Sequence record: PP925823.1
DNA: 37,205 nucleotides
DNA from: Escherichia phage LMessi
Strand: one strand, 5' to 3'
Part shown: piece after piece, positions 13,004-13,427 of the stretch
Layout of the letters: every line of letters begins with the position of its first letter
Position numbering within the stretch: the stretch's first letter is position 1
Translations under genes and position numbers: made by a program
The notes under the pieces: generated by a model
Databases searched by the model: none
The model's input: only the letters and a program-made list of their open reading frames with translations
Told to the model about the DNA's origin: nothing

Positions 13004-13101
13004 CTTTAAAAGAACCCCAGATCTTACGGTCCGGGGTTTTTCTATTTGTAACTAAGGGTAACAAAAACCCTTCCACTTTTCGCGCTCCGCTCACCTTGAT
13101 A

Positions 13102-13141
13102 CTGTTTATTTTTACAGTAAAAATACTGTATACAAACACAG
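13102..13141 (+). promoter_or_regulatory. two LexA (SOS) boxes overlapping the dinI-like promoter
   Basis: CTGTTTATTTTTACAG (13102-13117) and CTGTATACAAACACAG (13126-13141) both fit CTGT-N8-ACAG; TTGATA at 13096-13101 is a possible -35; GGAGG RBS at 13151-13155. Confidence 0.6.
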
Positions 13142-13160
13142 TGGTTTTCCGGAGGCTTAT

Positions 13161-13427
13161 ATGTTCGTTGAACTGGTTTATGACAAGCGGAATGTTGATG
13201 GTTTGGCAGGCGCCAGAGAAATTATCCTGGCAGAGCTGACGAAGCGAGTGCACCAGATTTTCCCTGATGCCGAGGTGAAAGTGAAGCCGATGCAGGAAAA
13301 CGGCCTGAATAGCGATGCCAGCAAAAGCGATCGGGAAAAACTGAACCGTATGCTGGAGGAAATGTTTGAAGAATCTGATATGTGGTTGGTTTCTGAGTTC
13401 CCGACTGTTCGCCAGGTTGGTGCGTGA
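13161..13427 (+). CDS. dinI: DinI-family (DNA-damage-inducible protein I-like) protein
   Basis: 88 aa; resembles DinI in length and in the conserved C-terminal acidic segment (EESDMWLVSE); preceded by LexA boxes. Confidence 0.7.
   Translation: MFVELVYDKRNVDGLAGAREIILAELTKRVHQIFPDAEVKVKPMQENGLNSDASKSDREKLNRMLEEMFEESDMWLVSEFPTVRQVGA

Follow-up and report, generated by a model that had tools for sequence, protein, structure and literature searches.

A predicted SOS-inducible dinI gene with two LexA boxes beside the ssrA-type attP of Escherichia phage LMessi

Background

Phage genes of the DinI family are widespread and almost always preceded by LexA boxes, which argues for a selected function. 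Escherichia phage LMessi (PP925823.1) carries such a gene next to its attachment site, and the locus raises the question of whether this gene is a unit of the SOS response and, if so, what its product would do for the phage or its lysogen. A preliminary description had proposed that the gene is controlled by LexA and might tune RecA-dependent cleavage of the phage repressor, and thereby induction. We examined the proposal over the whole 37,205-nucleotide stretch (hereafter the window). In our reading, to which we give a probability of about 0.88, LMessi dinI is a self-contained SOS-inducible moron close to attP, with a LexA-clamped promoter and a product that is a RecA-binding DinI of the phage type.

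Position of dinI beside attP

The assignment of attP is fixed by the tyrosine integrase gene at 11483..12730 on the plus strand (Pfam Arm-DNA-bind_2, 71.2 bits; Phage_integrase, 63.1 bits). A copy of the tmRNA (ssrA) 3' end at 12852..12889, also on the plus strand, forms the attP core region. The partial Rfam tmRNA match (E 5.6e-09) ends in CCA at 12889, and its last 25 bp, 12865-12889, match the published attP of phiNP exactly (PMC6456863). Arm-type repeats of one direct-repeat family (D2) lie on both sides of the core, TGCACTTAAAATGCAC to the left at 12787..12802 and TGCACGTGAAATGCAC to the right at 12983..12998, and in 15 related upstream regions the right-hand repeat shows little or no variation. 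The TGCACTTAAAATGCAC repeat is probably an arm-binding site of the integrase, which has an arm-binding domain. With the tmRNA 3' end, the integrase gene and the arm-type repeats all present, the region is by its sequence features an ssrA-targeting attP, and in E. coli prophages ssrA is joined directly to LMessi-type sequence and dinI.

The dinI-like gene occupies 13161..13427 on the plus strand (88 codons plus stop) and starts 272 bp downstream of the tmRNA 3' end copy. Its coordinates and strand bear out the preliminary placement between attP and the tail-fibre gene, opposite in strand to the tail genes: the tail-fibre gene lies at 13468-14853 on the minus strand, convergent with dinI, and 40 nt with a hairpin separate it from the dinI stop. 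Upstream, a putative terminator hairpin on the plus strand (CCCCAGATCTTACGGTCCGGGG followed by TTTTT, 13015..13041, fold −16.6 kcal/mol) keeps its stem in relatives, most of which have a perfect TCTGGGG arm; in a lysogen this hairpin would stop transcripts of ssrA and so insulate the promoter of dinI. Downstream, a terminator scan placed at 13433..13459 a hairpin common to the convergent dinI and tail-fibre transcripts, a candidate bidirectional terminator that folds at −17.1 kcal/mol on the plus strand (z −4.7) and −14.2 kcal/mol on the minus strand (z −3.5); the U-tract on the minus strand is a good one, that on the plus strand weak. The gene thus has the predicted anatomy of a moron, with a promoter of its own, flanking hairpins and a plus-strand position between attP and the minus-strand tail genes. 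Its GC content (0.494) is not different from that of the window (0.519), so dinI bears no compositional signature.

Promoter and LexA boxes

A pattern scan of the 37-kb window returned exactly two CTGT-N8-ACAG matches, CTGTTTATTTTTACAG at 13102-13117 (box 1) and CTGTATACAAACACAG at 13126-13141 (box 2), which are the two boxes and the exact positions that had been proposed. This loose eight-base pattern is only mildly unusual, with 0.42 matches expected and two or more found in 6 of 100 shuffles. The boxes were also scored as 20-mers with a LexA matrix derived from a set of 28 E. coli sites, which gives approximate bit scores. Box 1 (TACTGTTTATTTTTACAGTA, 13100..13119) reached 24.9 bits and box 2 (TACTGTATACAAACACAGTG, 13124..13143) 21.2 bits, against 9.5 bits for the next best 20-mer in the window. 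Both values fall in the upper half of the training sites, which score from 12.7 to 27.1 bits, and the same matrix recovered the annotated LexA site of phi80 at 25.7 bits. First-order Markov simulation of the window, repeated 300 times, gave no site of 21 bits or more, and sites of at least 18 bits arose at 0.02 per simulated window. The 20-mer scores and simulations, together with the conservation described below, rule out a chance origin of the boxes, which by sequence are close to the SOS consensus TACTG(TA)5CAGTA. The gap between these two scores and the next best one indicates that the two operators are the only LexA targets in LMessi, and dinI is predicted from the sequence to be the only LMessi gene under direct LexA control.

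The boxes had been described as overlapping a promoter-like region upstream of the reading frame, and this agrees with their predicted arrangement. The sole promoter-like site that a scan found in 12700-13700 is TTGATA-17-AAAAAT on the plus strand, with the −35 hexamer TTGATA at 13096..13101 and the −10 hexamer AAAAAT at 13119..13124; both hexamers are scan matches only, and the promoter is a consensus prediction. The −35 hexamer reads TTGACA in 14 of 14 aligned relatives as against TTGATA in LMessi. Box 1 fills the spacer between −35 and −10, and box 2 begins at the final base of the −10 hexamer and covers the predicted transcription start near 13131, so that the two boxes, 41 and 17 bp before the ATG, flank the −10 element. 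A Shine-Dalgarno sequence, GGAGG, can be read at 13151..13155 on the plus strand, 5 nt before the ATG at 13161. From this arrangement we infer that LexA would bind at both boxes and that LMessi dinI would be inducible by DNA damage.

Conservation follows the same pattern. Across 15 unique ssrA-type upstream regions the CTGT and ACAG half-sites and the Shine-Dalgarno sequence are invariant in the alignment, and variation in box 2 is confined to its central spacer; the stretch from the terminator to the −35 hexamer varies among the same regions. On a broader scale, a LexA box of at least 12 bits lies within 150 nt upstream at 140 of the 148 related dinI loci that have at least 100 nt of upstream sequence, against a background of 163 in 5022 tiles of 150 nt overall. 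The promoters that carry these boxes are unrelated in sequence, which points to selection for control by LexA. With different sequence, phiNP, CP-1639 and PhiR12_1 repeat the plan of an ssrA core followed by a terminator, TTGACA, two boxes that surround the −10, and dinI. Box spacing is 24 bp in nearly all two-box loci of close relatives (27 bp in one). Strict helical phasing of the boxes is excluded by phiNP, at 26 bp, and by CP-1639 and PhiR12, at 28 bp, and the only constant feature across two-box loci is the plan in which the boxes flank the predicted −10.

The DinI-family protein

Profile searches place the LMessi protein firmly in the DinI family, as the preliminary description had it. 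Pfam DinI (PF06183) matches at 79.4 bits against a cut-off of 24.2 (E 2.5e-22) over profile positions 2-63 of 63, and PHROG 189, 'RecA filament binding protein DinI', matches at 77.8 bits, with the LMessi protein aligned to positions 71-150 of this 151-position profile. A phmmer search matched the DinI entries 1ghh and 7ywa in the PDB (E 4.2e-07). The DinI match spans residues 1-79 of 88, and identity to the annotated DinI genes of mEp237, mEp390, HK140 and phi80 is 92-95%. Identity to E. coli DinI is 36%, and the score against the NCBIfam equivalog model for chromosomal DinI (NF007893), 40.1 bits, lies below its cut-off of 111. This rules out orthology to chromosomal dinI and makes the LMessi protein a paralogue.

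We used the known fold of DinI, a three-stranded sheet packed on two helices in an alpha/beta arrangement as in 1GHH, to judge a predicted structure. The single-sequence AlphaFold2 model is poor (pLDDT 60.8), with an order of elements (E2-7, H18-33, E38-43, H55-70) that fits DinI. A fold search with this poor model gave 7ywa_A (probability 0.95, TM 0.47/0.51) and 1ghh (probability 0.84) as the top PDB matches, at E-values of only 0.02.

In the cryo-EM structure, E. coli DinI contacts RecA through the hydrophobic residues L13, L21, W71, W77 and F78 and the acidic residues E24, E69 and D76 (PMC9926225). Four of these eight positions are identical in the LMessi protein (L13, E24, E69 and W77), three are conservatively changed (L21I, W71F and F78L), and one contact is lost by replacement of D76 with Met. 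The LMessi pattern is kept, depending on the position, in 113 to 122 of 122 unique phage-type relatives, including the Met in place of D76 in 115 of them. [quoted passage not shown]

The repressor and other local readings of the boxes

The phage repressor is of the S24 type, as had been assumed. The gene at 7632..8366 on the plus strand encodes a CI-type protein with HTH_3 (39.8 bits) and Peptidase_S24 (59.9 bits) domains in Pfam, and it has Ser159, Lys196 and a candidate cleavage site at Ala114-Gly115. A stand-alone S24 protein of 130 aa is also encoded at 9061-9453. Since dinI is the sole predicted direct target of LexA, it is RecA*-stimulated cleavage of the S24 repressor that must bring about induction.

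The search for an antirepressor fused to or downstream of dinI found none; the only overlapping reading frame is a TTG-started one of 33 codons in another frame. A dinI-antirepressor operon of the Gifsy type is excluded in LMessi by the want of downstream room or a downstream reading frame, by the S24-type repressor and by the lack of any other LexA site in the window.

That the boxes arose by chance, or serve something other than dinI (attP or integrase function, an antisense reading frame or a small RNA from the 3' end), is highly improbable. An antisense frame of 196 codons does cross the dinI region at 12852-13442, and the annotators of phi80 listed a similar one; however, in LMessi it spans the terminator, the operators and an attP arm, and a 1-nt indel breaks it in the relative L081, which excludes a coding role. 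A small RNA has a precedent in DinR, which comes from the 3' end of chromosomal dinI in Klebsiella and has a Klebsiella-specific pairing region (PMC10907235). A DinR-like product is made unlikely in LMessi by a 3' UTR of just 40 nt and the weak U-tract, and the Rfam scan returned only the tmRNA fragment plus chance-level matches. Control of attP or integrase function is opposed by distance, as the boxes lie at least 210 bp beyond the attP core, past the arm repeats and the terminator.

Proposed mechanism and possible functions

Under the reading that we prefer, that of a self-contained SOS-inducible moron at the attP end of a temperate, lambdoid phage, dinI in a lysogen would lie directly downstream of ssrA, shielded by the upstream terminator. 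Two LexA dimers, one in the −35/−10 spacer and one over the transcription start, would block a sigma-70 promoter. After DNA damage, RecA*-stimulated cleavage of LexA would free this promoter independently of the phage CI and the late operon. The resulting monocistronic mRNA, ended at the hairpin in common with the tail-fibre gene, would yield an 88-aa DinI paralogue of the phage type. [quoted passage not shown] RecA binding is predicted, and an effect on SOS output or prophage induction, in one direction or the other, may follow.

The preliminary description had favoured tuning of RecA-dependent CI cleavage, which is structurally plausible for LMessi by analogy. One form of it would be a brake or timer: DinI, made only after strong or sustained SOS owing to the double operator, would compete with the S24 CI for the RecA* groove and so raise the threshold of induction or delay it. 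The two strong boxes imply tight repression, and LMessi would bring an additional copy of dinI and with it a higher dose of DinI. Higher DinI doses reportedly shift the protein from stabilising filaments to inhibiting their coprotease activity (Yasuda 1998; Lusetti 2004). Both DinI and lambda CI dock on the L2 loop of RecA and its K232/R243/K245 patch (PMC9926225), and LMessi CI has the Ala-Gly, Ser and Lys of a cleavable repressor. Nevertheless, non-polar dinI deletions in Gifsy-1 and Gifsy-3 left induction unchanged (PMC3121763), a test that is weak for CI tuning in LMessi because Gifsy phages use antirepressors. DinI homologues are also found equally in phages with non-cleavable repressors, such as Gifsy and the 186/PSP3 Tum lineage (PMC3121763), so CI cleavage cannot be their general target. 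Our literature search found no published work that directly tests what DinI does in a phage whose CI/S24 repressor is cleavable, and we regard the brake as a tentative and rather unlikely explanation.

The opposite effect, in which DinI at roughly stoichiometric levels would stabilise RecA*, prolong cleavage of LexA and CI and commit the damaged lysogen to lysis, appears unlikely to us. DinI does lengthen and stabilise RecA filaments (PMC9926225), and such a role would suit both phages with CI/S24 repressors and those with LexA-controlled antirepressors, in which dinI is co-transcribed with the antirepressor (PMC3121763). Its usefulness to both groups would explain the presence of dinI in both. 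Yet the Gifsy deletions without effect on induction count against this role as well, and DinI fills the very groove that CI must enter, so that stabilisation and competition would be opposed. More speculative still, and in our view quite improbable, is that DinI of the phage type has become a specialised blocker of the RecA* groove, with altered contacts that discriminate among RecA* clients and a late release that sets the threshold or timing of CI self-cleavage. This idea draws on the 36% identity to the host DinI, on D76M, W71F and F78L, which are nearly invariant in the 122 sequences, and on the 9-aa tail found in some of them; the S24 protein at 9061-9453 might be a further target. DinI would then be an induction timer encoded by the phage rather than one more copy of the host gene.

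A role outside the phage switch is possible, though we would not rate it as likely: dinI may be cargo for lysogen fitness, akin to MsgA, that on DNA damage restrains UmuD cleavage, SOS mutagenesis or toxicity and so favours retention of the prophage. The moron anatomy, with transcription opposite in direction to the late genes and a place at the prophage edge, would suit such cargo. Homologues are annotated 'virulence protein MsgA', Salmonella msgA is LexA-boxed and damage-induced (PMC8072944), the emergence of quinolone resistance in E. coli is associated with loci that include a prophage DinI-like gene (PMC10575684), and dinI is listed as a fitness cargo gene of phiNP (PMC6456863). This support consists throughout of annotation or association, however, and the host already has a dinI of its own. 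Should phage DinI set the threshold of induction or keep SOS mutagenesis of lysogens in check, it would be relevant to interactions between prophages and antibiotics.

Comparison with known systems

A LexA-controlled dinI beside attP is a real and common arrangement that is already annotated in enterobacterial prophages. It is on record in the phi80 annotation, in the Gifsy experiments and in the dinI genes next to ssrA in CP-1639 and phiNP, and the LMessi sequence alone adds nothing beyond these records.

Among the closest described counterparts is dinL of phi80 (PHI80_27, JX871397), a lambdoid phage with RecA-mediated self-cleavage of its repressor (PMC9945995). The DinL protein is 93.7% identical to that of LMessi over residues 1-79, the gene similarly has the attP/int region on one side and a convergent tail-fibre gene on the other, and a predicted LexA site is annotated about 40 bp before it. 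In contrast to LMessi, phi80 has one box rather than two and a DinI of 79 aa that lacks the FPTVRQVGA tail. Its attP is located elsewhere than in ssrA and is separated from dinL by pin and pseudogene fragments.

The ssrA-integrating elements CP-1639, PhiR12_1-5, Citrobacter phiNP and the UMNK88 prophage of E. coli all have dinI as the first prophage gene and share with LMessi the order of ssrA 3' end, terminator, two LexA boxes, dinI and convergent tail genes. The UMNK88 prophage region is 89.9% identical to LMessi over 637 bp, whereas CP-1639 and PhiR12 carry another dinI allele, their DNA similarity ending at 13143 and their boxes standing 28 bp apart rather than the 24 bp of LMessi. phiNP is a myovirus in which the boxes are 26 bp apart and dinI is followed by hicAB and an acetyltransferase gene.

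[quoted passage not shown] Nalidixic acid induces them 4.5- to 23-fold (PMC8072944), and Gifsy DinI-3xFLAG accumulates after mitomycin C (PMC3121763). Gifsy dinI has one LexA box and is the first gene of a dinI-antirepressor-irsA operon in phages whose repressor is uncleaved, whereas LMessi dinI has two boxes, is predicted to be monocistronic and accompanies an S24 repressor. Tum of coliphage 186 and the split tum/dinI of PSP3 and Fels-2 are likewise LexA-controlled phage genes with a DinI-like module. Tum is an antirepressor fused to a DinI-like half (PMC3121763), which agrees with the partial match of the LMessi protein to PHROG 189 (positions 71-150); in LMessi the antirepressor half is neither fused nor adjacent.

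Chromosomal DinI of E. coli (1GHH; RecA complex 7YWA) is a member of the same Pfam family; its acidic C-terminal helix ends in W-x-VSE, and its gene is LexA-controlled. LMessi DinI differs from it in being phage-borne, in its 36% identity, in the replacement of D76 by Met and in a 9-aa C-terminal extension. The layout of the LMessi operators has a chromosomal parallel in Salmonella dinI, where two boxes lie 19 and 42 bp from the ATG (PMC8072944), compared with 17 and 41 bp in LMessi.

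Two predicted LexA operators at the dinI promoter

The preliminary description placed two CTGT-N8-ACAG boxes at 13102-13117 and 13126-13141, and a pattern search of the 37,205-bp window recovered both at exactly these positions and no others. This loose pattern is expected 0.42 times and occurred at least twice in 6 of 100 shuffles; because the excess is modest, full 20-mers were scored with a log-odds matrix. The matrix was made symmetric and built from 28 E. coli LexA sites (12.7 to 27.1 bits), and its scores are approximate. Box 1 (13100-13119, TACTGTTTATTTTTACAGTA) scored 24.9 bits and box 2 (13124-13143, TACTGTATACAAACACAGTG) 21.2 bits, both in the upper half of the training-site scores, whereas the third-ranked 20-mer of the entire window reached 9.5 bits. 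When the window was simulated 300 times with a first-order Markov model, no site of at least 21 bits arose. As an independent check, the LexA site annotated by the phi80 authors was recovered by the same matrix at 25.7 bits. Boxes 1 and 2 are predicted to be the sole credible LexA operators of the phage.

The sequence from promoter to start (13096-13165, plus strand) reads TTGATACTGTTTATTTTTACAGTAAAAATACTGTATACAAACACAGTGGTTTTCCGGAGGCTTATATG. The boxes had been described as overlapping a promoter-like region, which agrees with our prediction of TTGATA-17-AAAAAT on the plus strand, the sole promoter-like site in 12700-13700, following a hairpin and T-run at 13015-13041 (plus strand, −16.6 kcal/mol). 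Box 1 occupies the −35/−10 spacer, and box 2 begins at the final −10 base and would therefore cover the expected transcription start. A Shine-Dalgarno sequence (GGAGG, 13151-13155, plus strand) precedes the 88-codon dinI-like ORF (13161-13427, plus strand), and the boxes lie 17 and 41 bp from its ATG.

The gene was correctly located between attP and the tail-fibre gene, with the tail genes on the other strand. To its left are a tyrosine integrase gene (11483-12730, plus strand; Arm-DNA-bind_2 and Phage_integrase domains) and a plus-strand copy of the tmRNA 3' end (Rfam tmRNA, E 5.6e-09), which ends in CCA at 12889 and whose last 25 bp (12865-12889) form the attP core, identical to the attP/attB core published for Citrobacter phage phiNP (PMC6456863). 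A repeat search found TGCAC(T/G)T(A/G)AAATGCAC on both sides of this ssrA-derived core, at 12787-12802 (TGCACTTAAAATGCAC) to the left and, as further copies, at 12983-12998 and 13000-13015; these are probably arm-type binding sites of the integrase. To the right lies the convergent tail-fibre gene (13468-14853, minus strand; Phage_tail_C_2 domain), with which dinI shares a strong hairpin at 13433-13459 (−17.1 kcal/mol, z-score −4.7). On the plus strand the T-tract of this hairpin is weak, and on the minus strand it is good; its use is probably mainly for the late operon. Given its own promoter, the flanking hairpins and the convergent tail-fibre gene, dinI is predicted to be monocistronic and insulated on both sides.

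In lysogens ssrA becomes the left neighbour of dinI, and in E. coli UMNK88, CP-1639 and numerous further E. coli genomes ssrA is followed by the same sequence, a 'DinI family protein' and the tail genes. On the chromosome of E. coli DX6 (NZ_CP126345.1, 1202182-1202899; homologue hit H20) the integrase 3' end, attP and dinI are contiguous as in the free phage, unlike a simple prophage, which may reflect tandem prophages or assembly of an excised form.

Two further ORFs lie nearby. An antisense ORF of 196 codons (12852-13442, minus strand), comparable to PHI80_26 listed by the phi80 annotators, crosses dinI, both LexA boxes, the terminator and an attP arm, and is probably spurious because an indel disrupts it in a relative (L081). 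A 120-aa ORF at 14980-15342 (plus strand), set among tail genes of the other strand, has a lipoprotein-type signal (…LVAGC…), matches PHROG 25729 (unknown function) and recurs in the UMNK88 prophage; this second moron-like insertion may encode an exclusion lipoprotein.

Conservation of the operators among relatives

We sampled 80 viral and 80 genomic loci encoding close homologues. Upstream sequence of 100 nt or more was available for 148 dinI copies, and 140 of these had a LexA box of at least 12 bits within 150 nt upstream, against a background of 163 among all 5022 150-nt tiles from the same loci. Several promoter types of unrelated sequence carry the boxes, with preferred positions about 32-37 nt and about 56-63 nt before the ATG (72-78 nt in one promoter type). 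Two boxes were found at 23 loci, among them all 13 in which an ssrA tail lies some 296 nt upstream.

An alignment of 15 unique upstream regions of the ssrA type shows constant CTGT/ACAG half-sites, Shine-Dalgarno sequence and −35, while the stretch from the terminator to the −35 and the centre of box 2 vary. Fixed half-sites amid variable surroundings are the pattern that selection for LexA binding would be expected to produce. In the ssrA-type alignment the −35 hexamer is TTGACA in all relatives and TTGATA in the window only. The same plan recurs in other sequence in phiNP (boxes 26 bp apart) and in CP-1639 and PhiR12_1 (28 bp apart), and these differing spacings rule out a fixed helical phase of the two boxes; the constant feature is boxes flanking the −10. 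Two LexA boxes also precede the chromosomal dinI of Salmonella, at distances of 19 and 42 bp from its ATG (PMC8072944), compared with 17 and 41 bp in the window.

Similarity to CP-1639 and PhiR12 DNA begins at the ssrA core, extends through box 2 and breaks at 13143/13144 (seen at 3246-3293 and 259-306 of the relative loci L002 and L003); those phages, whose boxes are 28 bp apart, carry a different dinI allele beyond this point. The break resembles a mosaic joint between promoter and coding region.

The DinI-type protein

Assignment of the ORF to the DinI family was borne out by profile searches, the 88-aa protein scoring 79.4 bits against Pfam DinI (PF06183; cut-off 24.2 bits) and 77.8 bits against PHROG 189, 'RecA filament binding protein DinI'. 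The sole PDB sequence match was E. coli DinI (1GHH; RecA complex 7YWA; E 4.2e-07). An AlphaFold2 model from the single sequence was poor (pLDDT 60.8), and its best two PDB neighbours, 7ywa_A (probability 0.95) and 1ghh (0.84), at TM about 0.5, lend weak support to a DinI fold. The protein is 36% identical to E. coli DinI and is not an orthologue of it, as the NCBIfam equivalog scored 40.1 bits against a 111-bit cut-off.

Of the eight RecA-contacting DinI residues defined by Gao et al. (PMC9926225), four are identical (L13, E24, E69 and W77), three are conservatively changed (L21I, W71F and F78L) and one acidic contact is absent (D76M). Because the contacts are mostly kept and their pattern is nearly invariant among 122 unique sequences of the phage-type subfamily, it is reasonable to suppose that the protein would bind the RecA filament groove.

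Regulation and possible roles

In an undamaged lysogen, LexA dimers on both boxes would block RNA polymerase. RecA*-stimulated cleavage of LexA would free the promoter independently of the phage CI and of late transcription, and the dinI product would then bind RecA filaments. Strong sequence evidence and experiments on homologues support the regulatory half of this scheme. In the Gifsy prophages a terminator-like palindrome and then a LexA box precede the dinI homologue; mitomycin C leads to accumulation of DinI-3xFLAG, and replacement of the box region abolishes damage control (PMC3121763). Nalidixic acid induces the Gifsy dinI genes 4.5- to 23-fold (PMC8072944). We put the probability that the gene is both DinI-type and regulated in this way at about 0.9.

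The phage does encode an S24-type repressor, as had been proposed (CI, 7632-8366, plus strand; HTH and Peptidase_S24 with Ala114-Gly115, Ser159 and Lys196). Since this repressor is present and there is no other LexA site, induction presumably proceeds as in lambda, through self-cleavage of CI stimulated by RecA*. Closely 3' of cI on the same strand lie genes for a 143-aa HTH protein (8569-9000, plus strand; HTH_19 / Phage_CI_repr) and a separate 130-aa stand-alone Peptidase_S24 protein (9061-9453, plus strand), which matches PHROG 6201 end to end and has Ser41 and Lys82 but lacks an Ala-Gly before the serine. They look like a genuine two-gene 'split CI-like' pair, not a broken gene, and would be a third potential client of the RecA* groove in this phage.

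As no published experiment on a phage DinI in a phage with a cleavable CI turned up in our literature search, three readings of its function are each given a low probability. The proposal that it competes with CI for the filament, and so acts as a brake or timer on induction, is doubtful. That it instead accelerates induction by prolonging the signal, given that DinI stabilises filaments, is similarly tentative. Against any CI-specific role, non-polar dinI deletions in Gifsy-1 and Gifsy-3 left induction unchanged, and DinI modules also accompany uncleaved repressors, as in Gifsy, with Tum in 186, and in split form in PSP3 and Fels-2 (PMC3121763). Cargo that benefits the host is the third, similarly tentative reading: homologues carry the annotation 'virulence protein MsgA', Salmonella msgA is LexA-boxed and damage-induced (PMC8072944), and emergence of quinolone resistance has been associated with a prophage DinI-like gene (PMC10575684). 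A link between dinI and induction is plausible, but what little evidence there is does not favour it. What phage-borne DinI does is a family-wide question for which the window gives no special handle; there is good support for annotating the gene as an 'SOS-regulated dinI-like gene beside attP'.

Comparison with known phages

Several related records merit comment. In phiNP (L164, OR565852.1) the 'ddi' CDS (241-540) is annotated from nt 241, within the first LexA box; the DinI-like frame (MRVEISIAK…) has an ATG at 295 after AAGGAG, and the recorded start is probably wrong. The last 600 bp of Gifsy-2 (L165, NC_010393.1) contain an unannotated dinI-like ORF, 84% identical to the window protein, with a stop after codon 63 and with an upstream TTGACA and a 26.5-bit LexA box retained. 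Near-identical enterobacterial-type dinI loci (73-97% protein identity) appear under unexpected labels (L085, L086, L104, L112, H82 and H89: Geobacteraceae MAG, Chitinophaga MAG, Kocuria sabuli, Vagococcus sp., Aeromonas phage AsXd-1 and Elizabethkingia phage EKP1), which are likely contaminated or mislabelled records.

The window protein is 92-95% identical to the annotated DinI of coliphages mEp237, mEp390, HK140 and phi80. As in the window, dinL of phi80 has attP on one side and a convergent tail-fibre gene on the other, with a 'predicted LexA binding site' annotated immediately upstream, although phi80 has one box and the window two. The CP-1639 record likewise has a 'putative DNA damage-inducible protein' adjoining ssrA, and in phiNP a DinI-like protein is ORF1 after the ssrA attP (PMC6456863). 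In contrast to Gifsy, the window locus lacks an antirepressor, and its 88-aa protein form is another difference of detail. Because details alone separate it from phi80, Gifsy, CP-1639 and phiNP, the locus is of a known kind, and in effect its exact arrangement is known too.
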